54,037 bases of DNA from a virus (taxonomy: Duplodnaviria; Caudoviricetes): the IMG/VR virus record IMGVR_UViG_3300023297_000011, positions 1-54,037 of that record, one strand, 5' to 3'. Below are positions 3,381 through 48,621 of the stretch, one piece after another; position 1 is the stretch's first letter, and each line of letters begins with the position of its first letter. The notes beneath the pieces are model-generated. The model did not search any database and had not been told where the DNA came from. It saw nothing but the letters and a program-made list of their open reading frames with translations. The position numbers and the translations under genes are program-made.

Positions 3381-3389
3381 AAAAGGTCG

Positions 3390-15263: not shown

Positions 15264-15731
15264 ATGGCATCTTATACAGAGAAACAAAAGACTAAATTAG
15301 TAAACACTATATGTAAAGAGGTGGCTGGTGGTCGTTCTCTTAGGTCTGTATTGAGAGATGAGAACATGCCGTCTAATCCTACGTTTAGTAAATGGATGAA
15401 GGATAGCAAACAAAGACTTTTACAGTACACATGTGCGCGTGAGGATAGAGCAGATTTCATATTTGAGCAGATACTTGACATCTCAGACAGCCAAGAGGGT
15501 GACATGATAACACTGGAGGACGGTAGGGAGGTTGTTAACCACGATGTAATACAACGGGCTAGATTAAGGGTTGACTCTCGTAAATGGATGCTTGGTAAAA
15601 TGCAGCCTGCAAAATATGGTGAAAGATTAGACGTACAAAGTTCAGATGGTTCAATGTCGCCAAACACAGGACTGGAGGGCAAAACATTTGAAGAGCTATA
15701 CCAATTAAAGTATGGCAAAAAACCAGAATGA
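15264..15731 (+). CDS. terS: terminase small subunit (Sf6 gp1-like)
   Basis: ICKEVAGGRSLRSVLRDENMPS..QY..ARE.RAD..I.D..IQRARLRVDSRKWMLGKMQP.KYGE; overlaps terL start. Confidence 0.9.
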   Translation: MASYTEKQKTKLVNTICKEVAGGRSLRSVLRDENMPSNPTFSKWMKDSKQRLLQYTCAREDRADFIFEQILDISDSQEGDMITLEDGREVVNHDVIQRARLRVDSRKWMLGKMQPAKYGERLDVQSSDGSMSPNTGLEGKTFEELYQLKYGKKPE

Positions 15732-17170
15732 TTTTCGATTCAATATTAAACATAGAATTATCAAGAAGGAATTTTTGGGAGTTCTGCAATACGCTTGAAC
15801 CCGATTTCTACAAACCCGACAGAAAACATTTAATAACCCTATGTAATATCCTAGAATTATTTTACTACAAAAAACTACTAAAGCCAGACGGTGACGCATT
15901 CACTAAGCTAATGGTAAGGATGCCACCACAGCACGGTAAGAGCCGTACGCTTGTAAATTTTACTAAATGGATACTTGGCAAGAACGTTAACGAACGCATA
16001 GTTACAGCGTCCAATACAGATTCACAAGCAACAGACTTTTCAAGGTTTACCCGTGACGGCATAATGGGCATTAAAAACCTGCCAGAACAAATAGTTTATT
16101 CGGATATATTCCCAAATACAAAATTAAAGAAAGGTGATTCAGCAGTACAGAAATGGGCCCTACAGGGTCAACACTTTAATTATTTGGGAGTAGGTGTAAA
16201 TGGTTTAGTTACTGGCAAGGGTGCAACGCTTAGAATAATGGATGACATTGTTAAGGGTGCGGATCAGGCGTTAAGTGACACCGCAATGGATAAGTTATGG
16301 ATTTGGTTAACAGGAACATTTTCTAGTAGGAATGCCGCTGAAGAAGAAGAAGTAAGGGAAATATTTTGCGCTACACTTTGGGGTGAACGTGATCCACAAT
16401 ACAGGCTACAGGAAACTGAAGGTGATGAATGGTACATATTATCAATGCCAGTTTATGATTCTGAATTAGATGAAATGTTATGCGAAGACCTTTTGTCAAA
16501 AAAAGCATTTGTAAAGCTAAAGGCTAGGATGCTGGTTGACTCAAGGACAAAGGGTATATTCTATGCTAATTACATGTGCGAAGCTATTGACGACAATGAA
16601 GCCAAGGCATTCCCTCGAAGTTCGTTAAAGTTCTACAAATACCTACCAACCAAAACAATAAACGAAAACGGAACCGAAAAAGAAATACCGCAAGGATGGT
16701 TGTTTTCCTTTATAGACACAGCCGATGAAGGAATGGATAACTTCGCAATGCCTATATTTAGGGTAATAGGCGACCTTGTGTATTTAGTAGACTGTATATT
16801 TGACCAAGAAAACCTAACAATACAATTAAGTCAGGTAGCTAGCAAGCTAAAAGAGCATGGGCGGTTTGGTGAAATAGTAGTCGAAACAAACTCAGCGGGG
16901 GCGTTTTTTAAGCGTACACTAGAAGATAACCACCCAGACACACCTTTCTTTGGGCAGTGGTCAAAGGCTAACAAAATGGCTCGTATACTTAGTTATGCGG
17001 GTATTATTAAACTATACTACCGTTTCCCTGAAAATCCAAACCCAAATGTTGAGCGATTTATGAAGCAGGTTTACCGATTATTAAAGACTTCGAAGAAAGA
17101 AGATGACGCTCCAGATTCTTTGGCTGGTTCTGCCATGCACTTAGAGGCACAATATGAGATGTTTAAATGA
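15728..17170 (+). CDS. terL: terminase large subunit
   Basis: MPPQHGKS Walker A, IMDD Walker B, RNase H-like FIDTADEG.D..ETN..DDAPDSL. Confidence 0.95.
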   Translation: MIFDSILNIELSRRNFWEFCNTLEPDFYKPDRKHLITLCNILELFYYKKLLKPDGDAFTKLMVRMPPQHGKSRTLVNFTKWILGKNVNERIVTASNTDSQATDFSRFTRDGIMGIKNLPEQIVYSDIFPNTKLKKGDSAVQKWALQGQHFNYLGVGVNGLVTGKGATLRIMDDIVKGADQALSDTAMDKLWIWLTGTFSSRNAAEEEEVREIFCATLWGERDPQYRLQETEGDEWYILSMPVYDSELDEMLCEDLLSKKAFVKLKARMLVDSRTKGIFYANYMCEAIDDNEAKAFPRSSLKFYKYLPTKTINENGTEKEIPQGWLFSFIDTADEGMDNFAMPIFRVIGDLVYLVDCIFDQENLTIQLSQVASKLKEHGRFGEIVVETNSAGAFFKRTLEDNHPDTPFFGQWSKANKMARILSYAGIIKLYYRFPENPNPNVERFMKQVYRLLKTSKKEDDAPDSLAGSAMHLEAQYEMFK

Positions 17171-19004: not shown

Positions 19005-19825
19005 TGGAATATATTATAAAACAGTTTCCAGATAAAAAATTCAGTACAAAAATGGATCAAACACGATTCATTAAGGAGAATTTTGATACCATGAAGCAAA
19101 TCAAAATGACTGAATACAAGACGAATTCGCATGGTATAATTGAATCTATTAACAAAAAAGAATTTGAACCCGAAATTGAAGACATAACTTCTGATATTAT
19201 TTTAGTTAAGGCTGTTATTAATTCAACTAACATTATAGATAGCCATTTAGATTTACATATGGCTAAAATATGGAATAAGACAATAAAAGATAATCCATTT
19301 TCATATCACTTAAAACAACATGAAGCAAAGTTTGAGAGCGTAATATCAAACAAAGCAAAAAGCTATAACGAGAAGTCGAATTTTAACAAATTGGGCTTAG
19401 ATATTGACTTTGAAACAGTCGCAAATATAAATGAGTTTACATTATCAAAAGATAAAATGCCATTTATGTTTGATTCATACGTTAACGGAGATGTTACTCA
19501 GCATTCAGTAGGTATGATGTATGTTAATATAGACATGGCTTATTATGATGAAGATAGTGAAAAACAAATGGACTTCTTTAATGAAATGAAAGCCAATGCA
19601 GTTAATCCAGATGTGGCAGATGAATATGGTTATTTTTGGGTAGTATATGAAGCGAAAAAAAGAGAGGGTAGTGCTGTTGTATTTGGAAGCAATAGTGTAA
19701 CGCCAACATTGTATGTTAAAAATTATGAGCCGCCCAAAAGCACTCAGAAAGCAATAGAGCCGTCAGAGGACACTCAAAAACGTGAAATTTATATTAATTA
19801 TTTAAAAAATTTTAAAAATGGATAA
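19004..19825 (+). CDS. putative prohead protease
   Basis: Between portal and capsid; IDSHLDLH..H..QHSVGM..EGSAVVFGSN..TP. Confidence 0.65.
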   Translation: MEYIIKQFPDKKFSTKMDQTRFIKENFDTMKQIKMTEYKTNSHGIIESINKKEFEPEIEDITSDIILVKAVINSTNIIDSHLDLHMAKIWNKTIKDNPFSYHLKQHEAKFESVISNKAKSYNEKSNFNKLGLDIDFETVANINEFTLSKDKMPFMFDSYVNGDVTQHSVGMMYVNIDMAYYDEDSEKQMDFFNEMKANAVNPDVADEYGYFWVVYEAKKREGSAVVFGSNSVTPTLYVKNYEPPKSTQKAIEPSEDTQKREIYINYLKNFKNG

Positions 19826-37983: not shown

Positions 37984-38199
37984 ATGAAAATATTAATAAT
38001 AGCAGGAATACTAATTGCGATAATCGCCGCAACTTATGTAAGTGTTAAGTTGTACCCATTTAGGAGTTGGGTTTTTGAGAATATTATAGATTGGTTTGCA
38101 AAGAATAAATTAATAACAGCCGCAACGACAGTTATATTATTTGCCGTTGTGTCATTTATATTTTTTATGTATGGATTATATTCACATTGCATTTTATAA
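37984..38199 (+). CDS. two-TM membrane protein (holin candidate)
   Basis: Two hydrophobic helices; lysis-module position. Confidence 0.55.
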   Translation: MKILIIAGILIAIIAATYVSVKLYPFRSWVFENIIDWFAKNKLITAATTVILFAVVSFIFFMYGLYSHCIL

Positions 38200-38340
38200 T
38201 AAAAAGTTATAATTTAGTAATAATTTAAAATTTAGAGTTATGCCAAGACCAGATGATCCGCCGGGAGGCTTCGAAGAACCAAAAGAAGAATCAGCAACAG
38301 CATCAGAAACAAAAAAAACCAAAAAGGAGAAGAAGAAAAA

Positions 38341-38694
38341 GTGATTAACGCACGAAACATATTTGGGCTAGTTCTAATTGTTCTTTTTGTGATATATGAT
38401 TTGTTTCATATTCACGGGAATAGCTTTTGGGCTAGTTATTATTATGTGACGTGGAATTTAATTGGAATTTATGCATTTAGATATATTTTAAAATCAAGTA
38501 AAGATAAATTATTAAGGGTAATAATGAAGATATTTATGGGGGTAACTGTCTTCGAATTAATTTTAAATACATACTCATTTTTTAATATTGAACGATTTAG
38601 GGAATTGAATCATACAAAAGAATTAGGATGTGCAGTTGTATGTTGCGTAATAATATTTTTAATATACTCACGGCATGAAAGAATGGTTAGATAA
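38341..38694 (+). CDS. multi-TM membrane protein
   Basis: About four hydrophobic segments. Confidence 0.6.
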   Translation: MINARNIFGLVLIVLFVIYDLFHIHGNSFWASYYYVTWNLIGIYAFRYILKSSKDKLLRVIMKIFMGVTVFELILNTYSFFNIERFRELNHTKELGCAVVCCVIIFLIYSRHERMVR

Positions 38695-38947
38695 TACGCC
38701 CGCTTTAAAGTGGCTGTTAAACTTGGTGTCAACTTTATTGGTAGCACTAATAATATTTTGGGCATACGGAATGCGTGGGTCTAAAAAAGAGCTGAACGAT
38801 AAGATTGAAAAAAAAGCAGATGTTTGCTATGTAGATAGTCAGAATACGAAACAGGATAAAAGAATATCCGAAAAGGCTGATAAATCCCTCGTTGAAAGCA
38901 TGGACTCAAAACTTGATTTAATTTTAGACAAGTTACAGAATAAATAA
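38675..38947 (+). CDS. TM plus coiled-coil protein (holin-like)
   Basis: One TM helix; coupled to endolysin. Confidence 0.55.
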   Translation: MKEWLDNTPALKWLLNLVSTLLVALIIFWAYGMRGSKKELNDKIEKKADVCYVDSQNTKQDKRISEKADKSLVESMDSKLDLILDKLQNK

Positions 38948-39372
38948 TGGGCGACCTAAGAGACAGTTTAAGGCACGATTTAAAGAAAGGTGAAGGATTA
39001 CGTCTGTTTCCATACAGATGTACGTCAGGAAAGCTAACAATAGGATACGGAAGGAATTTACAAGAACGTGGGATAACAGAATACGAAGCAGATTACTTGT
39101 TGAGTAATGATATTGACGAATGTATTGAATCCATGAATGTAGTATTAAGCTACTTCTATGATTTGCCGGACAATGTAAAATTAGTTCTTTTGAATATGCG
39201 GTTTAATTTAGGATTAAATGGATTATTGAAATTCAAGAAAACATTATCATTAATCGAAATCGGTAACTACAAAGAAGCCGCTAAGGAAATGCTAAACAGT
39301 AAATGGGCAAAGCAGGTAGGCATAAGGGCAATTGAATTAAGTAAGGTATTGTCAAAAGAATCAGATAAATGA
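38947..39372 (+). CDS. endolysin, GH24 (T4-like) lysozyme
   Basis: EGLRLFPYRCTSGKLTIGYGRNL..NMRFNLG..L.FKK..AAKEMLNSKWAKQVG.RA. Confidence 0.93.
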   Translation: MGDLRDSLRHDLKKGEGLRLFPYRCTSGKLTIGYGRNLQERGITEYEADYLLSNDIDECIESMNVVLSYFYDLPDNVKLVLLNMRFNLGLNGLLKFKKTLSLIEIGNYKEAAKEMLNSKWAKQVGIRAIELSKVLSKESDK

Positions 39373-39622
39373 AGTTTATTACAGATATATTGCGATTATA
39401 CTGGAGGAATAGAAAAATTACCATACCAGCAACAATTGATGCTGCAAGGTGGGTTTATGGTAAAAGATTCTGGTTTAAAAAAAAGTGGAATGCAATCTTT
39501 AAAAAGAAAATTAAACAGCAGTGAAAATTATATTGATAGCACACTATTGCTTAAGTGCAAGAAAAGCATTAACTTTAAGGCAATTAGAAAATTAATTAAT
39601 AATTTATTTAAAAACAAAAATC

Positions 39623-39982
39623 ATGGCAGGAAAAGAAGGAACAGACCAGTTAAAAAAATTAGTTAAAAATGCAGTAGACTATGCACTGCAAGTAAAAAAG
39701 GCAAAATCAGATGATGGTAAAATATCCAAAGCTGAATATCTAGGATTTGTGGATGAGGCAATTTCTACATTAACAATTGTTTCTGGGTTTGGAAAACTAA
39801 AGGCAGAGATACTTGATTTTTCAACAGAAGACGGCAAAGAGTTATTGAACTACACTATCGGGCTTGGTGTAATTGGAGATAAGGCAGAGATTGTTATCAT
39901 AAATGCAGTTGAGGCAGTAGAAACCATGATTGGTGTGTATAATAATAATATAGTGCCAATAATAAACGTATTTAAAGACTAG
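39623..39982 (+). CDS. hypothetical lysis-module protein
   Basis: 119-aa ORF with A-rich leader; DDGKIS motif. Confidence 0.65.
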   Translation: MAGKEGTDQLKKLVKNAVDYALQVKKAKSDDGKISKAEYLGFVDEAISTLTIVSGFGKLKAEILDFSTEDGKELLNYTIGLGVIGDKAEIVIINAVEAVETMIGVYNNNIVPIINVFKD

Positions 39983-40008
39983 GTTTTTGTTTTAGTTTAG
40001 TTTTCATC

Positions 40009-40035
40009 GGGAAGGTTTTTAAACTTTCCCTTTGT
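40009..40035 (+). terminator. terminator at the convergence of late and early operons
   Basis: gggaaggttt/aaactttccc stem plus T-rich tail. Confidence 0.7.
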
Positions 40036-40037
40036 TT

Positions 40038-40337
40038 TTATAGTAGATACTTTTTATAATCCAGCGGCAACCTAAACATTTCATCAACTATATATTTCAT
40101 TTTGGTAAGCTGGACAAATGAAACATTCGATTTCTTATAATTTATTGCTTTCCTATTTCCATTTTTGTAAATTTTAAGTTGCTTGAAATTAGTCGTTCTT
40201 TTTTCATTAAAATGTGGTAGTATAAAAAGATTACCATATTTATCTGCAACTATATTTTTTAATAAAGTATATCTCACATAAATTATTAAATAACTAACAA
40301 TACTTAAATTTTCCTGTATATTCACTATGTCAACCAT
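40038..40337 (-). CDS. hypothetical protein starting inside attC0
   Basis: ORF passes through the attC0 left arm (ENLSIVS). Confidence 0.6.
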   Translation of the reverse strand: MVDIVNIQENLSIVSYLIIYVRYTLLKNIVADKYGNLFILPHFNEKRTTNFKQLKIYKNGNRKAINYKKSNVSFVQLTKMKYIVDEMFRLPLDYKKYLL

Positions 40338-40373
40338 TTTGAGTAATTAAGGGAATTTAGAAAGACGTTAGCA
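40292..40373 (+). repeat. attC-like site 0
   Basis: aactaac..ttaaattttcct...agggaatttag..cgttagc. Confidence 0.55.
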
Positions 40374-40374
40374 A

Positions 40375-40617
40375 TCATATTGCCTTATCATTGTGGTGAT
40401 ATTCACAATTGGGGCAATATCCGTCACATTCGTTCTGTCTGTAATCTTTTCCAGCATGGCAATACGCCACTTCGTTATTGCTAACAAGGTGCATAGAAAA
40501 TAATTTTACTATCCTATATGCAGTATCAGCCCATAGTTCTTTATGCAAAAACTCACCTTGTTCTGCATTTTTACTCATCTCTTCCATTATTATTGTAACC
40601 ATTTCTTCTTTTGTCAT
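40375..40617 (-). CDS. cassette 1 protein (Cys-rich C-terminus; start MTKEEM)
   Basis: Starts inside the attC1 loop; KLFSMHLVS encoded by the attC arm. Confidence 0.7.
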   Translation of the reverse strand: MTKEEMVTIIMEEMSKNAEQGEFLHKELWADTAYRIVKLFSMHLVSNNEVAYCHAGKDYRQNECDGYCPNCEYHHNDKAI

Positions 40618-40677
40618 TGTATTTAATTTTAGTATTTCAATTCCGTAAAATAAAATTCTATGCACAGACCGTTAGCG
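40479..40677 (+). repeat. attC-like site 1
   Basis: tgctaac..gtgcatagaa...ttctatgcac..cgttagc. Confidence 0.8.
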
Positions 40678-40914
40678 AGCATACTTGAAGAATATATCAC
40701 CATAACATTTTTTACATACCGTGCCATGTTTCTTTTTGTGGTGTAATGAAGCAGTATTAGCGCAAGTACATTCGCTAACAAAGTCTATATTTAAAAGTTT
40801 AACTACCCTCTTAGCACCATCTATAAATGCTTTTTCTATTTGGTAGCTATTCCTTTCAATTTTGTTTTCTTCAATATACTGCTCTGCTTCTTTCTTAATT
40901 CTTTTAATATTCAT
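40672..40914 (-). CDS. cassette 2 protein (zinc-finger-like C-terminus; start MNIKRI)
   Basis: Stop codon is the TAA of the GTTA crossover; KLLNIDFVS from the arm. Confidence 0.7.
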   Translation of the reverse strand: MNIKRIKKEAEQYIEENKIERNSYQIEKAFIDGAKRVVKLLNIDFVSECTCANTASLHHKKKHGTVCKKCYGDIFFKYAR

Positions 40915-40965
40915 TGTCTTATCATTTAATCCGTTAAACTTCAAAACATAGACAGAACGTTACAT
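40773..40965 (+). repeat. attC-like site 2
   Basis: cgctaac..gtctatatttaaaagtttaac...gttaaacttcaaaacatagac..cgttaca. Confidence 0.8.
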
Positions 40966-41006
40966 GCAATTTAATATTTAATAATTGCCTGCGCACTTTT
41001 GCTTTT

Positions 41007-41717
41007 TCAAAGCAATTTATATTTAAAAAGCTTTTCCCTATTAACCTTTTTTACATTGCCATTAGCTACGTTTAGCCCATTCCTTAAGTCTCCTTCCCAA
41101 ACACATTCAAAATCATCAGGTGCGTTATATTCGCTCACAAAAACTTTATGTCCTCTATCGCTCATTTCTCTACACCATTCCCAAAAGTCAGCATGGTCAA
41201 AATCATTTTTATATTTAGTCGTCCCTTCATATGGTGGGTCGCAATAAATTAAAGCTTTGTCTGTATTTAATGGCAATTCTCGATAACTGTAGTTTAACAA
41301 CTTAACATCTTTTATTTTATCACTTTGCTTTAATGCGTTCCTATACGCTTCGTTTATATAATCTCTTTTGCCCATCTTATCTCTTCTCCACCCACCTAAC
41401 CATTTTCCACCATAACTAAATGCAAATCCAGCATATCCTTTATGTTTATAATCGTCACTTTTTCTTAATCCTTTATATTCAGCTTCGGTAAATTCTGTTT
41501 TGTCTTTAGGTAGCTCATTTACACAATCTCTAATCGTAATTAAAGCATCAATAATATGCGGGTTTATATCTGCACCTATCCTTTTACCTTCTACTTTATC
41601 AATCATATTTCCACCGCCTACCATTGGCTCAACCCAAGTCATTTCAGGTGCTCTATGTTCAAGCATTATAGGCAGTATATACTTTGCAATCCTATTCTTA
41701 CTTCCCATATATTTCAT
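41007..41717 (-). CDS. DNA adenine methyltransferase (Dam/D12 class), cassette 3
   Basis: MKYMGSKNRIA, EPMVGGGN (motif I), IYCDPPY (motif IV), VFVSEY. Confidence 0.92.
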   Translation of the reverse strand: MKYMGSKNRIAKYILPIMLEHRAPEMTWVEPMVGGGNMIDKVEGKRIGADINPHIIDALITIRDCVNELPKDKTEFTEAEYKGLRKSDDYKHKGYAGFAFSYGGKWLGGWRRDKMGKRDYINEAYRNALKQSDKIKDVKLLNYSYRELPLNTDKALIYCDPPYEGTTKYKNDFDHADFWEWCREMSDRGHKVFVSEYNAPDDFECVWEGDLRNGLNVANGNVKKVNREKLFKYKLL

Positions 41718-41805
41718 AAAAAACCCTCCCTATTTTTAATTTTTTAGTTACGTTCATTTAATTATCTTTTGTGCTTATTGTCGCTACGTTTCATACAACC
41801 ATACG

Positions 41806-42045
41806 TTATAAACAACATTGCTCACAATAAATGCAATTAACTTCCTCTTGTGGTGTATTGTCGCCTATAAGTATTTTCCCTGTCCCTGCACAGTGTTCGC
41901 AATGCAGATTTATAACACAAGGTATATTTAATGCTTGCATTATCTTTTCATAACAGTCTGTCAAATTGCAGTTGCTCTGTTGTAATCCTTTTTCGTAAAC
42001 TTCAAACAATATATTTTCAATAATCTTTCTCTCAGGTCTTTTCAT
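41806..42045 (-). CDS. cassette 4 protein (CxxCxGxG..CxxC zinc finger)
   Basis: Stop in GTTA crossover; LNIPCVI from the arm. Confidence 0.7.
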   Translation of the reverse strand: MKRPERKIIENILFEVYEKGLQQSNCNLTDCYEKIMQALNIPCVINLHCEHCAGTGKILIGDNTPQEEVNCIYCEQCCL

Positions 42046-42097
42046 TTAATCAAATTTTTTCGGTTAATTGCCACTATTCTTACACGAGCCGTTATAG
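41910..42097 (+). repeat. attC-like site 4 (inner arms poorly matched)
   Basis: ttataac..ggtatatttaa ... ttcttacacgagccgttatag. Confidence 0.6.
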
Positions 42098-42433
42098 CAA
42101 ATGGAAGCTATCACTTAGTGCATTTGTTTCCTTTAGTTTTTCAAACAACGTCTCTGCAATTTCTACTCTTTGATAATGTTCCGCACAAGTTAGCGAAGCC
42201 GCAGCACCTATCATAAAGTGCTTAATGCGTTCAGCTTTTCCACTTGCAATAACATTTTGTAAATTGCAGTTGCTATCGCTTTTTTCAGTACCGTTCACTT
42301 GCTCCTGCTCTCTTAGGAAAAGCTCAGCTTTATTCTCAACTCTTATTCTAATGTTGTGGTCATAATCATTTTCAACCATCCACATATAAAAGTCAGTTAT
42401 TAATTTACGTTCTTTTTTGAAAGGACTTTTCAT
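42092..42433 (-). CDS. cassette 5 protein
   Basis: Stop in GTTA crossover; CNLQNVI from the arm. Confidence 0.7.
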   Translation of the reverse strand: MKSPFKKERKLITDFYMWMVENDYDHNIRIRVENKAELFLREQEQVNGTEKSDSNCNLQNVIASGKAERIKHFMIGAAASLTCAEHYQRVEIAETLFEKLKETNALSDSFHLL

Positions 42434-42523
42434 GATTTCGTTTTCTATTTTGGTTATTCAACTTTATTTGTTCTAATCAAATTCATCGGTTAATTAGCAA
42501 CGCAACATACGCCAACGTTACCA
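42247..42523 (+). repeat. attC-like site 5
   Basis: caataac..tgcagttgcta...tagcaacgca..cgttacc. Confidence 0.7.
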
Positions 42524-42533
42524 CATCAGTTTA

Positions 42534-42827
42534 CTACAGGTACTGCCTACATACACCACATTGCAGTCTATTATTGTAACTTAACCGCCTTTGCGAGTGT
42601 GGGTGCTTGCAAACCGTCACTTCGCTATGGGTAACACGTTGTATATTCAAGCTGCTTGCGCTCTCAGGAGAACCCTTCTCCGCCCACTCTTTTATAATAA
42701 CATCTTTTGCGTCTGACAGTATTCTAATATCATCTAATACCGAACACACTTCTTCGAATAATTCACAGCCTATTTTATCTTCGAGCATAGTCTGTATTGT
42801 TTCTACTCTTAAATTAATTCCCATCAC
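42534..42827 (-). CDS. cassette 6 protein (CxH..CxxC C-terminus)
   Basis: LNIQRVT from the arm. Confidence 0.7.
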   Translation of the reverse strand: MMGINLRVETIQTMLEDKIGCELFEEVCSVLDDIRILSDAKDVIIKEWAEKGSPESASSLNIQRVTHSEVTVCKHPHSQRRLSYNNRLQCGVCRQYL

Positions 42828-42905
42828 ACTTGTATTTGATTTATATTCTCGTTTCTAATTTATCGGTAATCCATCAGCGGTCAAAACAAACACAGGTCGT
42901 TGGAG
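42629..42905 (+). repeat. attC-like site 6
   Basis: gggtaac..tgtatattcaagctgc...gcggtcaaaacaaaca..cgttgga. Confidence 0.6.
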
Positions 42906-42927
42906 CTAATTGCGCTCGCATCATAAA

Positions 42928-43170
42928 TCATTTTGGCTCCTTTTGAAGTCCGCATATATCACAACTACCATTCGGTGCGTAAGCCGCCAATATTCCACAT
43001 CTACAAAATGATTTACTGGCTCCCTTTTCGGTATTTACATTATAAACCTTTTTTAGCTTCGCCTCTAATTCTTTTACTCTTTTTTGTAGGCTATCAAATT
43101 CATCAGAAGTTGAGCCAGTATCAAAATACTTATTACCAATTTTTCCAAATAATCTACCGTGATATTCCAT
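42928..43170 (-). CDS. cassette 7 second protein (coiled coil plus Cys motif)
   Basis: ORF track; lies in the cassette body. Confidence 0.7.
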   Translation of the reverse strand: MEYHGRLFGKIGNKYFDTGSTSDEFDSLQKRVKELEAKLKKVYNVNTEKGASKSFCRCGILAAYAPNGSCDICGLQKEPK

Positions 43171-43188
43171 TGTATTAGTTTAAAAAGT

Positions 43189-43356
43189 TTATAATTCCCA
43201 ATCCCGACAATTAGCTCCAGGTATATTTAAAATTTTTAACTGCTGTTTTAAACTTTCATTTTCTTTGTATAAATTGGAGCAAAACTTCTTTAGATTTTCT
43301 ATTTGCTCATCTTTTGTTAGTGGTTTATTACCTCCGCCTGTTGTTACTTGTACCAT
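43189..43356 (-). CDS. cassette 7 first protein, 55 aa (not in ORF track)
   Basis: MVQVTTGGGNKPLTKDEQIENLKK...KILNIPGANCRDWEL*; starts in the attC7 loop. Confidence 0.6.
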   Translation of the reverse strand: MVQVTTGGGNKPLTKDEQIENLKKFCSNLYKENESLKQQLKILNIPGANCRDWEL

Positions 43357-43411
43357 AATATTCGTTCATTTAATCCGTTAAAAATTCAAAACATACCTGC
43401 GGCCGTTACAA
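43208..43411 (+). repeat. attC-like site 7 with deleted R'' AAC
   Basis: caattagctcca-ggtatatttaaaatttttaac...gttaaaaattcaaaacatacc..cgttaca. Confidence 0.7.
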
Positions 43412-43417
43412 CCCATA

Positions 43418-43789
43418 CTAATCAGCTTTTATCATAGATTCATGGAAGTGGGTTGACCAGTCATTTGTGCCGCATAAATAATATTTAGGATCTTCGTGGT
43501 AATCTTCAACTTCTGCTTTTTGCCAAACACAACCCACTAGTACTCTTACTTTTTGACCTTTTGTAAAAGTACGGGTTGTAACACGTGCTATATTCAAGCT
43601 ACCGCTTTCTTCATCATTGGGCTTGCTTTCACACGTTCTCAATAACTTTATTTCTTCCATTATTTGCATCATTTCTAAATTTGCAGCATTCTGAATTGAT
43701 ATACTGCTTCCATGTGAATAATTATAAGAAGCAGTATTTAATTTTTGCTGTAATTCATTTAATATACTTTCCCTCTCTTCGTTTTCCAT
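43418..43789 (-). CDS. cassette 8 protein (SH3/KOW-like C-terminus)
   Basis: LNIARVT from the arm; FTKGQKVRV. Confidence 0.7.
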   Translation of the reverse strand: MENEERESILNELQQKLNTASYNYSHGSSISIQNAANLEMMQIMEEIKLLRTCESKPNDEESGSLNIARVTTRTFTKGQKVRVLVGCVWQKAEVEDYHEDPKYYLCGTNDWSTHFHESMIKAD

Positions 43790-43860
43790 TGTATTTTATT
43801 CTAATAAATTTATGTATAAGTTTTGATTAGTAGTCTGAACATAGCACAACACCGTTATGG
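43576..43860 (+). repeat. attC-like site 8
   Basis: ttgtaac.cgtgctatattcaagct...agtctgaacatagcac..cgttatg. Confidence 0.8.
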
Positions 43861-44163
43861 CTAATTGCCAATAACCTTTTTCAGCATATAGTGCTTAACC
43901 CATTTTACTCCTGCTCTTACTCCTTCTGGCATCCATACACCTTCTGCTATAGATGACATAGAATTATCATAACTACTTGCTTCTGCTTCAATTTCCTTAT
44001 CAGAAGGCAACATAGCCATAACATCAGCTATATTTAAAAGTTTAACTGTCACCCTTACAGCTTCTTCTACTAATCTCAAATCTTTTCCTATAAGTTCATT
44101 CCCTGCATTTATGAACTCAGTTTTTACATTATTTTCTAATTGTTTTAATTCTGATTTTCTCAT
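43861..44163 (-). CDS. cassette 9 protein
   Basis: KLLNIADVM from the arm; LPSDKEIEAEA..GVKW. Confidence 0.7.
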   Translation of the reverse strand: MRKSELKQLENNVKTEFINAGNELIGKDLRLVEEAVRVTVKLLNIADVMAMLPSDKEIEAEASSYDNSMSSIAEGVWMPEGVRAGVKWVKHYMLKKVIGN

Positions 44164-44215
44164 AATATTGTAGTTATTAATCCGTTAAACTTCAAAACAT
44201 ACCTAAACGTTAGGC
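44016..44215 (+). repeat. attC-like site 9
   Basis: ccataac..gctatatttaaaagtttaac...gttaaacttcaaaacatacc..cgttagg. Confidence 0.8.
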
Positions 44216-44226
44216 ACAATATTTTA

Positions 44227-45093
44227 TTAATTTTGCCCTCGCTCTTTGGTTTTTTCAAAACCATTTAGAAAAATATCATCGTCAAACTGTTTTAATCTTT
44301 CGTGTGTTATTTCACAATATTCAGCACTTAATTCACTACCAATCCACTTTCGTTTGTTTAGTATAGCCATTTTAGCAGTCGTTCCACTACCCATAAAACA
44401 ATCATAAACTAAATTTCCCTCATTGCTCCAACTTATTATATGGTCGTTTGCAAGTTGTTCAGGAAATATTGCAGGGTGTTTAAATGCAATCTTGTCTTTT
44501 GTGCTATTTTGGTTTCCTCTTGGCAATTCCCAAACATTACTCTTTACTCTTGTGTTGTCTTTTCTTGCTCGTTCCTTTCTTGTAAATCCATTTGTATTGT
44601 CAATTCTTTTTAAGCTGCCATCAACTTGTCTTTCTCCACCAACACCAGTTTTATTTTTTTGTCTTTTTAATGTTCCTTCTGTCTTAGGTTGTCTTAATAA
44701 ATTTACGGTTTTTGGTTTTCCTTTGCTAAACACAAACATATATTCAAAATCTTGGTAATATCTAACAACATCAGGGAAAGCACAAGTTCTTTTATAAATC
44801 ATTGTATCGTGCAAATTAAATCCTGCATCTTCTACAAACAATATTGCAGTTTTAAAACTTGTTAGGCTTTCACAATAGTTTTTAGTCTTATCATTTACAA
44901 CCCAAACAACAATTCCACCTTCTTTTGTAACTCTATAAAGTTCTTTTGCTATTTCTTTTAATGGTAGCGTAAACCCTTTGTATGTTCTGACATCGTCATA
45001 CGGTGGAGATGTTACTGTCAAATCAACAAAATTATCAGGCATTTTTGCCATCGTTTGTAAATTACTCTCGTTATATAAATAATTTGTTTTCAT
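44227..45093 (-). CDS. N4-cytosine/N6-adenine DNA methyltransferase (beta class), cassette 10
   Basis: VTSPPY (motif IV) before HPAIFP..VYDCFMGSGTT (motif I). Confidence 0.93.
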   Translation of the reverse strand: MKTNYLYNESNLQTMAKMPDNFVDLTVTSPPYDDVRTYKGFTLPLKEIAKELYRVTKEGGIVVWVVNDKTKNYCESLTSFKTAILFVEDAGFNLHDTMIYKRTCAFPDVVRYYQDFEYMFVFSKGKPKTVNLLRQPKTEGTLKRQKNKTGVGGERQVDGSLKRIDNTNGFTRKERARKDNTRVKSNVWELPRGNQNSTKDKIAFKHPAIFPEQLANDHIISWSNEGNLVYDCFMGSGTTAKMAILNKRKWIGSELSAEYCEITHERLKQFDDDIFLNGFEKTKERGQN

Positions 45094-45142
45094 ATAATTA
45101 AAATTTAAAAAATTCCTCCCTAAAAAATTAAAAAATACAGAT

Positions 45143-45206
45143 GCCTAACACTGCGTCATACGTAAGTTTGTGAAAAACAAACCAACGCATACACTTCACG
45201 TTATAA
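45143..45206 (+). repeat. attC-like site 10 (compact, 64 bp)
   Basis: gcctaac..cgtaagtttg-tgaaaaa-caaaccaacg..cgttata. Confidence 0.75.
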
Positions 45207-45530
45207 ACAAGGTGGCTTAATTCCTGCCCAATGTGTAATACCTAGTCTTTGTTTACCGTAGGGCTCATCCCACCAACATTTTTTTGCATAGTAGCATATC
45301 CTAGGTTCTTTATTATATCCGTAACAATAGTATGGTTTGTTTTTTGGTGGTGTCTCATCTTTGTCCGCCACCCAGTTAATAACAACAGGTAAATTTAATT
45401 TTTCAACCTCACTTATGTGGTATATATTGGCAAATGCTATTAAGTCGAAGTATGTATATATTCTTCGCTCTTTTGGTAATTTACTGCTAGTTAAAAACTC
45501 TTGCTCATTAAAGAAATCTTTTGCTTCCAT
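45201..45530 (-). CDS. cassette 11 protein (DUF551-like C-terminus; start MEAKDF)
   Basis: WV...PP...ITHW..I..P; stop in GTTA crossover; KLNLPVVI from the arm. Confidence 0.7.
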   Translation of the reverse strand: MEAKDFFNEQEFLTSSKLPKERRIYTYFDLIAFANIYHISEVEKLNLPVVINWVADKDETPPKNKPYYCYGYNKEPRICYYAKKCWWDEPYGKQRLGITHWAGIKPPCL

Positions 45531-45582
45531 ATTGTAGTTATTAAATCGGTTAAAAATCAAAACTTACCAAAGTGCGTTGTGA
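45377..45582 (+). repeat. attC-like site 11
   Basis: taataac..ggtaaatttaatttttcaacc...ggttaaaaatcaaaacttacc..cgttgtg. Confidence 0.75.
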
Positions 45583-45657
45583 ATCAATTACCTCAGCTAC
45601 GCCAAAAGGCTTGCTAATTAATATCTATCTTACTAACCTCCATTTTTAAAACGTTTT

Positions 45658-46332
45658 TTATCTTCTAAAGCTTTCGCCTTTGAACTCAATAAAGTTGAAC
45701 ATCTCATTAAATCTATCAAGTAAAGCATTGTCAAAACATTTCAATTCTGAAGGATGAAAATTACTGGTAGCATGAGTAATGACTTTTTTCTCCTGGAACA
45801 TCTCATATCTCACCATTATCATTGAGTTAACTACATTTTGAATATTAGTACCGTAGTACTTTTCATCAAGTTCTTTTCCGAATTCGTTTATACATAAATG
45901 GAAAGGCTTTTTGTCTTCTTTATTCCTTCCGTATTTAGCCAAGTTGCCGTTATCTTTATAATGTTCTGCCAGTTTTTCAATAGATGTTATTCCGTACCCA
46001 TTTGGGCTAAATGGAAAGCATCTTGCTAAAAACTTACTAAATATTTGCATTGTAATAGTTTTTCCTACCCCGTACACCCCGTAAAGGTATATTCCTTTAT
46101 TTAAATCCAATACGTGTTCATTCCCGGTGAAATACATAAACAGATTATTGAAAATAGCTTTTAAATCTTTTGTCAATTCAAAATCATTCACAAGGTTATT
46201 TGCAATTTCCAAAGTTTTTTGTTTTAAACTAATAGATGTTACTGGATCAGGTTTCCAAATTTGGCTTTGCATAAATGTCAACTGTTTTGAAATCTGGTTT
46301 TTGTCCTGTATTATCTCCGATATTTTTTTCAT
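45658..46332 (-). CDS. DnaC/IstB-like ATPase (helicase loader)
   Basis: GIYLYGVYGVGKT, LCINEFG, THATSNF, LDRFNEMF..FKGESFR. Confidence 0.8.
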   Translation of the reverse strand: MKKISEIIQDKNQISKQLTFMQSQIWKPDPVTSISLKQKTLEIANNLVNDFELTKDLKAIFNNLFMYFTGNEHVLDLNKGIYLYGVYGVGKTITMQIFSKFLARCFPFSPNGYGITSIEKLAEHYKDNGNLAKYGRNKEDKKPFHLCINEFGKELDEKYYGTNIQNVVNSMIMVRYEMFQEKKVITHATSNFHPSELKCFDNALLDRFNEMFNFIEFKGESFRR

Positions 46333-46966
46333 CTTCTTTATTTTCGTATTTTCCTTCTAATATTTTTAAGAAATTCGTAGGGTTAAAAATCCAATCAAAA
46401 TCAGATTTCCATTTTCTATCATTATCACCGCAAAGAAATTTAGATTCTCCAGCTTTTTTAAATACTTTTATTATTGTTTCTAAATCAAATTCTTTAAACC
46501 TTGCATTAATATGTTTTTTTCTTTCATCTGAAAGTTTTTTAATTTTGCTTAATTTGTCACAATAAAAATGAAAGTGATCTACTACTTCTTTGTAGTTTAT
46601 TATGTTTTCATTAACAGTTACATTATCATTATCATTATCACTATCATGTTTTTTTCGCTTTTGTTCGGTTTCTAATAAACCCATTGGGTTATTTTGCTTT
46701 TGTTCGGTTTTCTTTGGTCTACCACCCTTTGCTCCGTTTGTCCTATTTGTATCAACCTGATTTTTATATTTATCTAAATCCCTATTTAGCGTGTCTTTTA
46801 TATTGGCGAAAACTGCATTTATTAAAATATCTTCAGTGATTGGATCCTCATCGTTAACGTATGAAAAGATGTGTTTTATTAATTGCCCAGCCTTATCGTT
46901 TGGCAGTGCATCGAATGTGCTTTTCCAATTAACGTAAGCAATAAATGATTTTTTGTCTTTTGCCAT
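46247..46966 (-). CDS. phage replication initiator (DUF6291-like N-terminus)
   Basis: KSFIAY..W..L..AGQL..N..NGAKGGRP; DNDNDN linker; W..DFDWI..NFLKILEGKY. Confidence 0.8.
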   Translation of the reverse strand: MAKDKKSFIAYVNWKSTFDALPNDKAGQLIKHIFSYVNDEDPITEDILINAVFANIKDTLNRDLDKYKNQVDTNRTNGAKGGRPKKTEQKQNNPMGLLETEQKRKKHDSDNDNDNVTVNENIINYKEVVDHFHFYCDKLSKIKKLSDERKKHINARFKEFDLETIIKVFKKAGESKFLCGDNDRKWKSDFDWIFNPTNFLKILEGKYENKEDEKNIGDNTGQKPDFKTVDIYAKPNLET

Positions 46967-46968
46967 AA

Positions 46969-47640
46969 CTAATCAAGTGAAAAACTTATTTTATCAGTAT
47001 CATCATTAAATTGCATCGGCATAATTAAAATATCAACATCACTTATGGTAAAATTACTGCCATGTGCCGCTGATTCCTGATAAGTTAATTCTATTGTGTC
47101 TGATTTAAGTATTTCACAAATGCGTATAAGGGGCTCTATCTTATCAAAATAAAATGTACTATTCCCTATTTTAATTATAGATTTTGGATCAGTAATTAAT
47201 TTTCCAGTTGGAACTTCTCTGGATTCTGATTCCAATCCACTCCCGTCACATACTGGACATTTGGCTTCAATATAATAATTCTTACCATTGTAACTATAAT
47301 CCAATTCAATTTCACATTCACCACAACACGCCCCGCAATCTAAATCCTCTCCAATTGTTTCATCTATCTTGTCTAATTTAGATATTTTGGTCACAAAATT
47401 TTTAACATTTATTGATAAAATTGATTTTGTTTTTTGTGGTATGATAATGACAACATTTTGTGGATCGTATTCTGTCAATATATGAATATCACCAACTTTG
47501 TCTTTATTAATATAGCACATTCTATACGCATCTGTTCCTATGGCATAGCTATTGGCTAAAAATGGTCTATTCATCCAGTCCCTAATTTCATTATCTGCAT
47601 CAGCAAATAGTCTTAATATTTTTTCATACTTATTTTCCAT
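46969..47640 (-). CDS. sliding-clamp-like fragment with zinc-finger insertion
   Basis: GTDAYR and C-terminal ILIMP (clamp-like); CxxCxG..CPVCDGSG. Confidence 0.5.
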   Translation of the reverse strand: MENKYEKILRLFADADNEIRDWMNRPFLANSYAIGTDAYRMCYINKDKVGDIHILTEYDPQNVVIIIPQKTKSILSINVKNFVTKISKLDKIDETIGEDLDCGACCGECEIELDYSYNGKNYYIEAKCPVCDGSGLESESREVPTGKLITDPKSIIKIGNSTFYFDKIEPLIRICEILKSDTIELTYQESAAHGSNFTISDVDILIMPMQFNDDTDKISFSLD

Positions 47641-47677
47641 AATACAATTATTTTGTAAATTATTAATAAATAAAAAA

Positions 47678-47830
47678 TTACACCTTTATAAGTGTGGTGC
47701 TTAAAACTTTTTTAATTCTTTCTTTCGGTATCTTCCCAGATGAAATATGATTATAAACCGTTTTTAGGTTCATACCATGTTTTTCCGAATATTCCTTTAC
47801 TGTTATGTATTTTACTTCAATCAAAATGTA
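47678..47830 (-). CDS. small HTH DNA-binding protein (start uncertain)
   Basis: YITVKEYSEKHGMNLKTVYNHISSGKI. Confidence 0.6.
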   Translation of the reverse strand, partial: YILIEVKYITVKEYSEKHGMNLKTVYNHISSGKIPKERIKKVLSTTLIKV

Positions 47831-47928
47831 AATTTTAAAAGTTAAATAAACCGGGTTAACAGCCCGGTCTAAAATAGGTGTAAAAATGGTGAACAATTTT
47901 CGCTGCATCAAATATAAATAATAATTAT

Positions 47929-48621
47929 TTAATTTGTTGCTATTTCATTTTTATATTCATCAAATTCACTTTGATCGAATACCCAAACCCTCTTTTTTAG
48001 TAGGTATTTAAACGTCTTACCAATCAGCAGAAGATTAAACCTGTCGAATTTATACCCATTTTGCTTGTACAAACCTTCAGCTTTATCTAGGTCATCAATA
48101 TACTGCTGGCCGTGACGGTTAATTAAACCTTTACGATAATTCAATAGATCACCTGATTTAAAATGATTACTAGAAGTACTTTGTCCATGAATATTACTTA
48201 CCCAAAACCGCATTCCATTATGTGTACTTGTAGGAAAGAAATGCCCGGCATCATGTATAGAGCCATTATCACTGATTGATTTTCCATTAAAACATTCATT
48301 ATCCCTTTGTCTGATATATGGATTACAAAGATCGTCTTGGATGTGTTTAATCATTCCGCTAACATCTTTGTCCTCCCACTTCGTATAAGCCCGTTTCCCG
48401 CCTTTTGTATTTTTAGTGGCATACTTGCCTGTTTTGAATGACGTTGATTCCTTTTTGGTGTACATGGTACTCTGTGCGAGCAATTTTTTATTATTCTTGA
48501 TACGCAAACAATCAGGATGCAGTTTTGACTTAATAATTTTAGTCCTAAAATCTCTTATAGGGGTGAATTTCTTTCCACATCCACAACTACAAGTTATTTG
48601 GCCTTCTATAGATTTTTTCAT
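47929..48621 (-). CDS. ninG: NinG/Rap-like recombination endonuclease
   Basis: NPYIRQRD..DAGHFF...RF..NIHGQ..N.FKSG.LL.YR.GLI.R.G. Confidence 0.75.
   Translation of the reverse strand: MKKSIEGQITCSCGCGKKFTPIRDFRTKIIKSKLHPDCLRIKNNKKLLAQSTMYTKKESTSFKTGKYATKNTKGGKRAYTKWEDKDVSGMIKHIQDDLCNPYIRQRDNECFNGKSISDNGSIHDAGHFFPTSTHNGMRFWVSNIHGQSTSSNHFKSGDLLNYRKGLINRHGQQYIDDLDKAEGLYKQNGYKFDRFNLLLIGKTFKYLLKKRVWVFDQSEFDEYKNEIATN

Follow-up and report, generated by a model that had tools for sequence, protein, structure and literature searches.

The segment from 40.3 to 45.6 kb of the window (the whole 54,037-nt stretch of viral DNA analysed here) is probably an orphan integron-type cassette array (CALIN) in a phage, in which a recombinase of its own is absent from the record, the native enzyme of its relatives is most probably of a short Xer type, and the array is partly decaying. 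About 11 small gene cassettes and 12 proposed attC-type sites lie here between the virion/lysis side and the replication genes (Table 1). Each cassette is one self-contained minus-strand gene unit, and each site consists of a cassette-specific R arm ending in TAAC, a short spacer, an imperfect 16-21-bp stem, a loop, the returning stem, a spacer, and GTTA with the next R arm. Phage arrays of the integron type are an already known kind, as phage CALINs were published in 2023 (PMC9892861). A preliminary description of the window had proposed such an array without integrase, served by a host integron integrase; the array type, the R pairs, the core boundaries and the strand asymmetry held up, whereas five of the 12 hairpins are weak or decayed and the host enzyme is no longer the favoured partner.

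Table 1. Sites (S) and cassettes (C) of the array. z, arm pairing (plus/minus strand where two values are given); fold z, whole-site folding energy; R1, match to the R1 site model.
Feature	Position	Strand	Description
S1	40295-40370	-	TAAC-A and C-GTTA cores present, arms weak; z +0.6/+0.4; fold z +1.0; R1 13.2 bits, E = 2; loop holds start codon of gene 40038-40337; array end nearest virion/lysis side
C1	40368-40671	-	gene 40375-40617, 80 aa, Cys-rich C-terminal part; R pair 40367-40375/40477-40485, run 9
S2	40482-40674	-	193 nt, 21-bp arms; z -7.6/-8.2; 135-nt loop with ribosome-binding region, start codon and ~44 codons of C1 gene
C2	40672-40959	-	gene 40672-40914, 80 aa, Cys-rich C-terminal part; R pair 40671-40678/40772-40779, run 8
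S3	40776-40962	-	187 nt, 21-bp arms enclosing 5' part of C2 gene; z -8.0/-7.8
C3	40960-41805	-	D12-class N6-adenine DNA methyltransferase 41007-41717, 236 aa; Pfam PF02086, 3e-14
S4	41746-41808	-	upstream of C3, decayed: left core GTTAC, arms unpaired; z +0.1; fold z +1.27
C4	41806-42091	-	gene 41806-42045, 79 aa, Cys-rich C-terminal part; R pair 41805-41812/41909-41916, run 8
S5	41913-42094	-	both cores, weak arms; z +0.7
C5	42092-42517	-	gene 42092-42433, 113 aa
S6	about 42440-42520	-	right half alone recognisable; z +0.8; R1 partial match 42495-42520, 11.1 bits
C6	42518-42899	-	gene 42534-42827; R pair 6 nt (42517/42635)
S7	42632-42902	-	weak arms, right core GTTG; z +0.8/+0.4
C7	42900-43405	-	two ORFs: 42928-43170 (80 aa), 43189-43356 (55 aa); R pair 42901-42912/43208-43219, 12 nt, 12/14 positions match
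S8	43216-43408	-	193 nt, 21-23-bp arms, left core TCCA for TAAC; z -6.5/-8.6
C8	43406-43854	-	gene 43418-43789, 123 aa; R pair 43405-43414/43573-43582, run 10, 13/14 positions
S9	43579-43857	-	279 nt, 18-bp arms; z -3.5/-5.5
C9	43855-44209	-	gene 43861-44163, 100 aa; R pair 43854-43863/44013-44022, run 10
S10	44019-44212	-	194 nt; z -3.6/-5.9
C10	44210-45200	-	N6/N4 DNA methyltransferase 44227-45093, 288 aa; Pfam PF01555, 3.3e-42; R pair 44209-44216/45142-45149, run 8
S11	45146-45203	-	58 nt, canonical size, gene-free loop; z -2.0/-2.7; R1 26.3 bits, E = 0.004
C11	45201-45577	-	gene 45201-45530, about 110 aa; R pair 45200/45383, 8/9
S12	45380-45580	-	~200 nt, right core GTTG; z -3.0/-4.0; array end by replication genes

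The seven inverted pairs quoted in the preliminary description are all present as written (40367/40485, 40671/40779, 41805/41916, 42901/43219, 43405/43582, 43854/44022 and 44209/45149), and we detected two weaker pairs besides, those of C6 and C11; for C5, no R partner was found. A perfect run of at least 8 nt from the GTTA core was present in six of nine cognate start/end pairs and in one of 90 non-cognate pairs, the C7 pair being left out of the six because its match is offset from the core. Whole genes lie between the R arms, over distances of as much as 889 nt here and ~1.8 kb in another contig (G002). Around C10, the pair encloses the whole 867-nt gene, and its extended arms are 889 nt apart; a local RNA hairpin would be no explanation for this. 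The complementarity between the start of each cassette and its own end would be what excision of a circle and its re-insertion leave behind, with presumed circular intermediates and a crossover presumably inside the GTT/AAC core.

The right end reads C-GTT at all 12 sites and the left end TAAC-A at nine; the exceptions are S4, S6, which has no left core, and S8. At seven of the 12 proposed hairpins (S2, S3 and S8 to S12), the arms pair better than in 200 shuffles of one arm (z between -2.0 and -8.0 for the plus strand, between -2.7 and -8.6 for the minus strand), whereas at the five weak sites (S1 and S4 to S7; z +0.1 to +0.8), they pair no better than shuffles. Minus-strand folding gave the long-range stem of S3 in its minimum-energy fold as well as the S11 hairpin, but whole-site energies were no better than those of shuffles, being ordinary in AT-rich DNA (z -1.3 to -1.4 for S11, -0.6 for S3 and positive for three weak sites).

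The plus-strand A-C mismatches that had been described for sites 2 and 7 are more widespread: counted over all seven strong stems, mismatches on the plus strand are A.C in 11 cases, C.A in one and G.T in one. This ratio of 12 to 1 argues that folding takes place on the minus strand, which is the sense strand of the genes. An RNA role would also be compatible with the G.T (G.U) pairs conserved on that strand.

Six sites span 187-279 nt, well above the usual attC size, and have coding sequence in the loop; the loops of these oversized sites enclose the gene start and about 45 codons. The window is rich in this gene-in-loop class of site, unlike the recombinase-linked platform of its relatives.

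Scanned in full with strict geometry, the window yielded four plus-strand sites, which all lie in the array, and five minus-strand sites, four of them in the array. The R1 model, which was built only from sites in other contigs, matched S11 at E = 0.004 (Table 1), and six of its eight best window matches were on the minus strand inside the array. Beyond the window, the strict scan gave 269 matches vs 8 in shuffles (772,768 bases). We collected 357 distinct sites, whose sizes fall into classes near 85-94 and 115-129 nt, and contig G002 has ~42 consecutive sites, mostly with 9-10-nt cassette-specific R matches. An alignment of 46 sites has double changes at 17 of 18 stem pairs and one G.U pair kept in 44 of the 46, although these sites were chosen for having a stem and the count is not independent proof of structure. 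Moreover, S10 with its edges (44016-44213) is 94% identical over ~200 bp to a site in contig G001, where the copy is joined to an unrelated C-terminal module; the identity runs from CCATAAC to GTTAG and stops exactly at both cores. The geometry and R boxes in hundreds of other sites, this match ending at the cores, and a published IntI1 assay (see below) provide independent support for the integron-type reading. The site family is large and located in phage contigs, apparently those of Bacteroidota phages.

The preliminary description had recognised no tyrosine recombinase, and this is borne out within the record, which covers 76% of the genome, so that the missing 24% might still hold such a gene: PF00589 had 0 matches in six frames, and tblastn with two array-linked recombinases gave nothing better than E = 0.33. 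In 80 viral contigs that encode a short Xer-type recombinase, the sites are concentrated directly upstream of its gene, with 391 there vs 12 downstream. At least two sites were detected at 59 of the 80 loci vs one of 80 after shuffling, and, where the upstream sequence extends for 3 kb or more, at 49 of 54 loci; the last site is at most 1 kb from the gene in 49 of 52 loci. The enzyme has 267-298 aa, its best NCBIfam match is NF040815 (177 and 206 bits, under the cut-off of 220), and it lacks the IntI-specific segment; its alignment to TIGR02249, the model of IntI, is split in two and leaves out positions 205-239 or so. In addition, the cultured phage Freya_10 has 4.9 kb more than Freya_1, in a block directly upstream of the integrase gene and bounded by ..CAAC| and ..TAAC|. 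These sequences make a short Xer-type tyrosine recombinase at the sense-downstream array end, rather than a canonical IntI, the most probable native enzyme of the site family; this link is an association, and the published assay concerns IntI1 on a P12002L site. Our literature search found no paper describing a phage integron-like platform with an Xer-type recombinase, and PMC9892861 does not mention one (0 occurrences of 'Xer').

Because neither the sense-downstream end of this array nor any other part of the recorded 76% of the genome encodes a recombinase, the assembly of the array may date back to an ancestor, or a co-infecting or resident relative may have provided the recombinase in trans, a host IntI being a less probable source. 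The array is now in partial decay, with five of its 12 sites degenerate. Both the enzyme that acted on this array and any continued activity are matters that we infer. Continuing acquisition, deletion or reordering of cassettes in this phage is conjectural; no recombination event was observed in it, and we found no close relative of the phage for a comparison of gain and loss.

The cargo consists of two orphan DNA methyltransferases and small proteins without assigned function; Pfam returned no family for the gene products of C1, C2, C8 and C11. The C3 methyltransferase is 50% identical in amino acids to gp54 of Polaribacter phage P12002L and 53% to a cassette in another contig (L177), and homologues of the C10 enzyme sit between such sites in many contigs. 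The methyltransferases plausibly protect against host restriction.

A canonical IntI of the host could instead service the array in trans, recombining folded bottom strands at G/TT. IntI1 recombined P12002L_attC2, from a phage that carries this site type, into attI1 using the bottom strand only (PMC9892861, section 3.4), and IntI-bearing hosts are plausible, since in a sample of 401 genomes from the phylum to which a Polaribacter genome belongs, 113 encode a full-length canonical IntI (TIGR02249 above cut-off). We nevertheless regard this partner as unlikely: the site family is linked to the Xer-type recombinase, which has no IntI-specific segment, and the cassette genes run antisense to the orientation that is canonical in integrons. 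Moreover, the search for the same arrays in Bacteroidota chromosomal integrons was negative, as 12 stretches of 20 kb around six canonical intI genes had no array of this geometry (0-5 matches per strand, in an ungapped stem scan that may miss classical short-stem attC); the five matches near one intI gene (L228) are another repeat and a terminator. That the hairpins are RNA elements (terminators, or processing and stability stems) of a polycistronic early transcript, with the complementarities as by-products, is very improbable. The wobble asymmetry does favour the transcribed sense strand, the sites lie between genes, and attC sites have been regarded as weak terminators (PMC9892861); however, two terminator-like sites were found vs 2.2 expected, neither at a site, the R pairs enclose whole genes, both position and polarity link the sites to a recombinase gene, and insertions of blocks at the AAC core distinguish cultured phages.

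Inversion by an invertase, as in Bacteroides promoter and intragenic inversions, would fit the 18-21-bp repeats that flank ~135-nt segments with gene 5' ends and the 8-12-bp repeats that flank C-terminal modules. Yet in silico inversion of the C-terminal module led to a stop within 5-11 codons in all five cassettes tested, each repeat pair has its own sequence except for the 4-nt core, PF00589 detected no invertase of the tyrosine type in the record, and inversion does not account for the chain-like repeat layout; we therefore give it almost no credence. Promoter-stem-loop elements of T4-type phages are a model for shuffling by homologous recombination, and recombination between repeated promoter/stem-loop sequences without a site-specific enzyme would agree with the similar arms of S3, S8, S10 and S12 and with the promoter-like T-rich motif in the arm upstream of each gene. 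This mechanism is highly unlikely here, because it offers no route to complementarity between the first and last bases of a cassette and leaves the fixed polarity beside a recombinase without a cause.

Promoter-stem-loop elements of T4-type phages and Bacteroides invertons resemble the array in that structured elements recur between the genes of a hyperplastic accessory region and that inverted repeats flank promoter-containing segments, but neither yields the cassette-specific end complementarity or a link to a recombinase at one end, and the inversion test was negative. The sedentary chromosomal integrons of Vibrio have homogeneous attC repeats. With integrons the array shares cassette starts complementary to their own R'' box, the AAC/GTT core, an imperfect and strand-biased hairpin, and related sites attached to unrelated cargo; in recombinase-bearing relatives, moreover, the enzyme gene is at one array end, pointing away from the top-strand direction. 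It differs in that the window is without IntI and the enzyme linked elsewhere is without the IntI-specific segment, in R arms of 8-14 nt rather than 7, in many oversized sites, and in cassette genes that are antisense in the phage array, so that a common promoter beside the recombinase cannot drive them. Recombinase-linked phage arrays have the same site geometry, cassette-specific R arms and methyltransferase cargo as the window, which is missing their recombinase.

Qi et al. reported in 2023 clusters of attC sites without integrase in virulent phages, including P12002L, whose CALIN encodes two methyltransferases and of which two sites were tested (PMC9892861). In P12002L, the same TAAC..GTTA sites with an R pair flank gp54, the homologous methyltransferase, and the complete genome has no PF00589 match; the published sites are presumably those detected here, given the paper's statement that the CALIN has two methyltransferases. 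P12002L and the window thus both have hairpin-bounded cassette arrays, no integrase, DNA methyltransferase cargo and the same kind of flanking genes (NinG and replication genes). Compared with the two tested P12002L sites, the window has ~12, of which six enclose a gene start; the window adds an orphan array whose oversized sites take in the 5' end of each gene.

The window contains an ORF for a large terminase and therefore derives from a tailed phage; its completeness was rated at 76%, and ORFs are open at both ends. From ~40 kb on, genes are encoded on the minus strand, and a Pfam scan of the right, replication-side flank of the array detected an AAA ATPase, a DUF6291 protein, NinG and a protein with a DnaA C-terminal domain. 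Sequence of the window was present as assembled contigs in 24 source runs from salt-lake and marine metagenomes. No match was obtained when positions 38000-48000 were compared by megablast with 50,697 phage records, and a search for close relatives using the protein encoded at 45658-46332 returned only relatives of 31-35% identity, at one locus in viral contigs and two in metagenome contigs. The host is probably a member of the Bacteroidota, because the nearest methyltransferase matches are in Polaribacter and Cellulophaga phages and because of the taxa that carry the recombinase family linked to such arrays.

The array is a real feature, and its interpretation in the preliminary description was right in part. 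On the plus strand, each unit starts with GTTA and 4-10 cassette-specific bases, continues through the cassette body to a TAAC-terminated stretch that is the reverse complement of the starting bases, and is followed by a 2-3-nt spacer starting with A, a 16-21-bp imperfect stem with a loop, and 4-7 nt ending in C before the next GTTA. All seven cassette-specific R pairs (start bases complementary to the end of the same cassette) quoted in the preliminary description were found in the sequence. In an all-against-all comparison of cassette starts and ends, perfect matching over at least 8 bases from the core was present in 6/9 cognate pairs vs 1/90 non-cognate pairs. One R pair spans the entire 867-nt methyltransferase gene. 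In accordance with the R'' and R' boxes of attC sites (RYYYAAC and GTTRRRY), TAAC is present at nine of the 12 left ends and C-GTT at all 12 right ends; the strict 7-mer consensus fits some sites only.

Of the 12 hairpins proposed earlier, seven were upheld in that their arm pairing was much better than in 200 shuffled sequences (z -2.0 to -8.6); the remaining five were not distinguished from the shuffles (z +0.1 to +0.8), and in three of these the predicted fold failed to form. The five decayed sites suggest relaxed maintenance of the array. The folding energy of whole sites did not separate them from shuffled sequences in this AT-rich DNA (z -0.6 to -1.4); because the thermodynamics are not distinctive, the case for the sites rests on arm pairing, geometry and comparative data. 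The strand asymmetry noted earlier was confirmed: mismatches in the plus-strand stems are A.C or C.A 12 times vs G.T once, and thus the minus (gene-sense) strand can form G.T pairs at these positions. The minus strand also folded better at six of the seven strong sites. Three sites share a conserved A.A mismatch at one stem position. No Rfam family matched in the array region, and no attC model of Rfam fired.

Every cassette contains a complete minus-strand gene. In six sites of 187-279 nt, the loop comprises the upstream region of the gene, its start codon and ~45 codons; one stem arm is translated, and the reading frame passes the TAAC core into the cassette body. The non-translated arm lies ~30 nt upstream of the start codon, such that hairpin and coding constraints overlap. 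The cassette bodies frequently correspond to short, Cys-rich C-terminal parts. Two cassettes encode DNA methyltransferases (PF02086 and PF01555), and the other cassette proteins match no Pfam family. A scan for sigma-70 promoters was at chance level, with 29 matches vs 27.6 expected, and the arm motif has only a loose fit to the -7 promoter motif of Bacteroidota.

Features located in the window and in related loci
Feature	Source	Coordinates	Strand	Description
Permuted tmRNA	window	3097-3388	-	RF04321, 73.2 bits (gathering score 47), E = 3.3e-12; sole Rfam match in the window
KilA-N + ANT protein	window	4025-4891	-	Antirepressor, 288 aa; same length as the cassette methyltransferase and unrelated to it
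Large terminase ORF	window	15728-17170		At most 37% identity to any cultured phage
Sense-downstream end of array	window	40295		Abuts an uncharacterised 99-aa gene, followed by plus-strand genes
Translated arms nearest the cassette body, six sites	window	40482-45580	-	Fixed frame; ..KLLNI..V motif in 5-7 proteins
Offset R pair	window	42901/43219		12-nt match, offset from the core; seventh pair beside the six of nine
Site shared with G001	window	44016-44213		94% identity, which stops at CCATAAC and at GTTAG
R box with strict 7-mer consensus (example)	window	45143-45149
Site found by model R1	window	45146-45203	-	58 nt; 26.3 bits, E = 0.004
Contig loose ends in metagenome runs	window	45145 and 45151
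Sites flanking gp54	P12002L locus	5843-5898 and 6687-6744		8-nt R pair (geometry scan)
Long array	G002 (L106-L114)	77.7-114.9 kb		~22% of the contig in one array; several cassettes duplicated; methyltransferase and recombinase at the array end
Tandem palindromic repeats	G136 (L228), Bacteroidota chromosome	19354-19530		~86-nt repeats adjoining a canonical intI; sequence unlike the phage sites

The preliminary description had also recognised no tyrosine recombinase in the window, and we obtained the same result: PF00589 had no match in the window, and a tblastn search with the recombinases linked to related arrays gave a best E value of 0.33. Both ends of the array lie within the contig, and neither adjoins an intI gene. 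In the flank Pfam scan, which on the left extended to the gene at 40038-40337, next to the plus-strand genes at 38341-39982, the right-flank genes included no recombinase and this left-end gene matched no family; also, no recombinase lies within ~1 kb of the sense-downstream end, the position that it occupies in related arrays. No candidate for the attI site, which with a common promoter belongs to a complete integron, was identified in the window. As the enzyme is missing at the 40295 end and everywhere else in the record, assembly of the array probably took place at an earlier time or in trans.

Beyond the window, this site geometry is common. A strict geometry scan of the window and 100 fetched loci gave 269 matches vs 8 in shuffled sequence. 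Among 80 viral contigs encoding a homologue of the 288-aa methyltransferase, 31 had at least one gene-oriented site vs 3/80 after shuffling, and the sites frequently flank the methyltransferase homologue directly. The 357 distinct sites collected across the loci fall chiefly into the size ranges 85-94 and 115-129 nt, and a smaller group of ~190-205 nt resembles the sites in the window. An alignment of 46 diverse ~87-nt sites has an 18-pair stem with double changes in 17 pairs and one G.U pair in 44/46 sites; as these sites were chosen for having the stem, the independent information is the conserved wobble and the fixed spacers only. Model R1, a covariance model built from sites of other contigs, recovered a window site, and six of its eight best window matches lie on the minus strand within the array. 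When viral contigs were scanned for exact copies of an 18-nt arm motif, 17 single matches were obtained, all of which, except that at locus L011, were apparently chance matches in AT-rich sequence.

A long array was found in contig G002 (169,658 bases), which contains ~42 consecutive sites over 37 kb, with R matches of 9-10 nt in most consecutive cassettes. The phage status of G002 follows its IMG/VR and CheckV labels; among its 10 largest ORFs, PHROGs matches comprised a tail-fibre-like protein, RtcB, an HNH endonuclease and a transposase, and neither a capsid protein nor a terminase.

One window site is 94% identical to a site in a recombinase-bearing array in contig G001, but the C-terminal modules attached to it are unrelated between the two. 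In chromosomal integrons, near-identical attC sites are common to unrelated cassettes, and the sharing between G001 and the window resembles this situation. Because the shared site carries an N-terminal coding module, modules may be swapped at both cores; this 200-bp module is the one observation that points to module shuffling.

Among the array-bearing contigs examined, two have a tyrosine recombinase directly after the array and three do not. The two array-linked recombinases (267 and 298 aa) are 45% identical and have the catalytic residues. The best NCBIfam match of both is the XerA-type NF040815, with 177 and 206 bits (cut-off 220), while the integron integrase model TIGR02249 matched in two stretches only and skipped positions ~205-239, where the IntI-specific segment lies; alignment with the solved IntI4 structure was also split in two stretches. 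The segment that is missing from the Xer-type enzyme is believed to enable IntI to act on single strands in folded form. We fetched 80 viral loci with relatives of these recombinases (56-100% identity) and found at least two sites in 59/80 loci vs 1/80 after shuffling. Sites were upstream of the recombinase gene in 391 cases vs downstream in 12 (0.88 vs 0.023 per kb). Moreover, at least two sites were present in 49/54 loci with at least 3 kb of upstream sequence, and the last site was at most 1 kb from the recombinase gene in 49/52 loci. By contrast, 20 bacterial-genome loci with recombinase relatives (31-63% identity, one being a 38-residue match) had 0-2 sites each and, on this shallow, pattern-based search, the array-linked clade was therefore encountered mainly in viral contigs. 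A search of open-access full texts and preprints returned a paper on phage attC clusters without an integrase and nothing on phage arrays beside a Xer-type recombinase.

Members of this recombinase family (~38-43% identity), annotated as "integrase", are also present in the cultured Polaribacter phages Freya, Danklef and Leef and the Cellulophaga phage Ingeline, and cassette differences at the cores were compared in the cultured Freya phages. Freya_10 and Freya_1 are 99.9-100% identical on either side of one point, at which Freya_10 has an extra 4.9 kb. This block lies immediately upstream of the integrase gene, starts after ..CAAC and ends with ..TAAC; the sites within it have YAAC/GTTR cores and share the geometry described above. 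In both genomes (loci L218/L219), a 144-nt element comes after the insertion point, and its 17-nt arms (15/17 paired) enclose the start codon of the integrase gene; this element may be the attI-like site of the system. In the accessible part of the Freya-phage paper, the integrases are read as a sign of temperate life, and the word integron is not used.

Most likely, by analogy with integrons, the sense strand would fold, a tyrosine recombinase would cut within the AAC core, and cassettes would exit as circles and enter beside the recombinase gene. Such a mechanism would leave a footprint in which the first bases of each cassette are complementary to the R'' box of that cassette. This footprint was observed, as were the polarity, the association with the enzyme and, in Freya, insertion at the core; the chemistry, the intermediates and the identity of the enzyme are inferred. 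It is possible, if somewhat doubtful, that the array is part of a phage equivalent of the integron that has yet to be described and is operated by a short Xer-type recombinase, in which the site has been co-opted as gene sequence and the cores re-assort N-terminal or promoter modules with C-terminal modules.

Four of the 24 runs (metagenomes X10, X11, X21 and X23) were compared with positions 39000-47000. In the short, low-depth pieces from these runs, neither joints at paired cassette cores nor strand-changing joints were listed. At the skips from ~44265 to 45100, each side spans a mere 27-38 letters and the content in between is undefined. In X21, a marine run, the summed contig depth over 44073-45407 was 65-369 vs 0-13 in most other bins. 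In view of this depth and the contig loose ends, the methyltransferase may adjoin other sequence elsewhere; the depth also suggests that relatives of the cassette are abundant in other genomes of the X21 sample.

Alternatively, as originally proposed, a canonical IntI of the host could serve the array in trans. Full-length IntI above the TIGR02249 cut-off is encoded by 113/401 genomes of the sampled phylum, that of the Polaribacter genome G006, and is thus common there. Also, according to the accessible part of PMC9892861, IntI1 works on a site of Polaribacter phage P12002L, recombining P12002L_attC2, the only such site with a published assay, into attI1 with the bottom strand only. However, arrays of the same geometry were absent within 20 kb on either side of six canonical intI genes, and statistically the site family is associated with the Xer-type enzyme. 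We consider a host IntI improbable as the partner.

The hairpins could also be elements that function in RNA only, but no terminator-like match was obtained at any site and the R pairs span genes. Homologous shuffling of promoter stem-loops could redistribute the genes but would not create complementarity of cassette ends. Cassette-specific end complementarity is not predicted by IS200/IS605-type or REPIN-type single-strand elements or by Xer/dif modules, none of which was retained. Invertons were rejected as well, as inverted C-terminal modules closed in silico within 5-11 codons in 5/5 tested cassettes.

Integron cassettes are a main bacterial route to accessory genes, and the part of phages in it is only starting to be described. 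The window shows that a lytic-type phage can give 5 kb to cassettes, including two anti-restriction-type methyltransferases, without an enzyme of its own, and by its sites it belongs with a far more extensive family that has a different, smaller recombinase beside the array. If the Xer-type enzyme does the work, recombination of folded-strand cassettes would not be a monopoly of IntI, and phage accessory regions would be assembled site-specifically, beyond illegitimate or homologous recombination alone. Moreover, the oversized coding sites provide a concrete test of loop tolerance in attC-type sites, and module re-assortment at two cores, if true, would be domain shuffling driven by an enzyme.

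Compared with integrons, the recombinase gene of the related arrays resembles intI in that, with respect to the attC top strand, it precedes the array and is directed away from the cassettes, whereas the cassette genes point towards the recombinase; in the window, every cassette gene runs opposite to the canonical attC top strand, with its start region inside its own site. The attC length of ~57-141 nt fits only the site recovered by model R1 and those weak sites that measure 63-81 nt, while six sites are of 187-200 nt and two of 270-279 nt. On the minus strand, the spacers of the window sites are 2-5 and 1-3 nt, which fits the sense-strand geometry of the Xer-linked family (TAAC, 4-5 nt, stem, loop, stem, 1-2 nt, GTTA). 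With sites called by our own geometry scan and model R1 instead of IntegronFinder/HattCI models, the window has seven sites with significant arms in an array with cassette-specific R boxes and no recombinase, and thus corresponds to a cluster of at least two attC sites in a row with no intI nearby (CALIN). Such clusters have a precedent: the accessible part of Qi et al. 2023 (PMC9892861), in which a term search gave no mention of Xer-type enzymes, describes 17 integrase-free attC clusters from phages, and that of the virulent phage P12002L "encodes two putative DNA methyltransferases". The D12-class methyltransferase of the window is 67% identical to P12002L gp54 in DNA and 50% in protein. PF00589 had no match in the complete genome of P12002L, and an array of this site type without a recombinase is therefore already in print for a fully sequenced cultured phage. 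In total, we conclude that the window contains a further recombinase-less array, and that what it adds is the size of the array, the antisense orientation of the genes, and oversized sites that also serve as gene starts.
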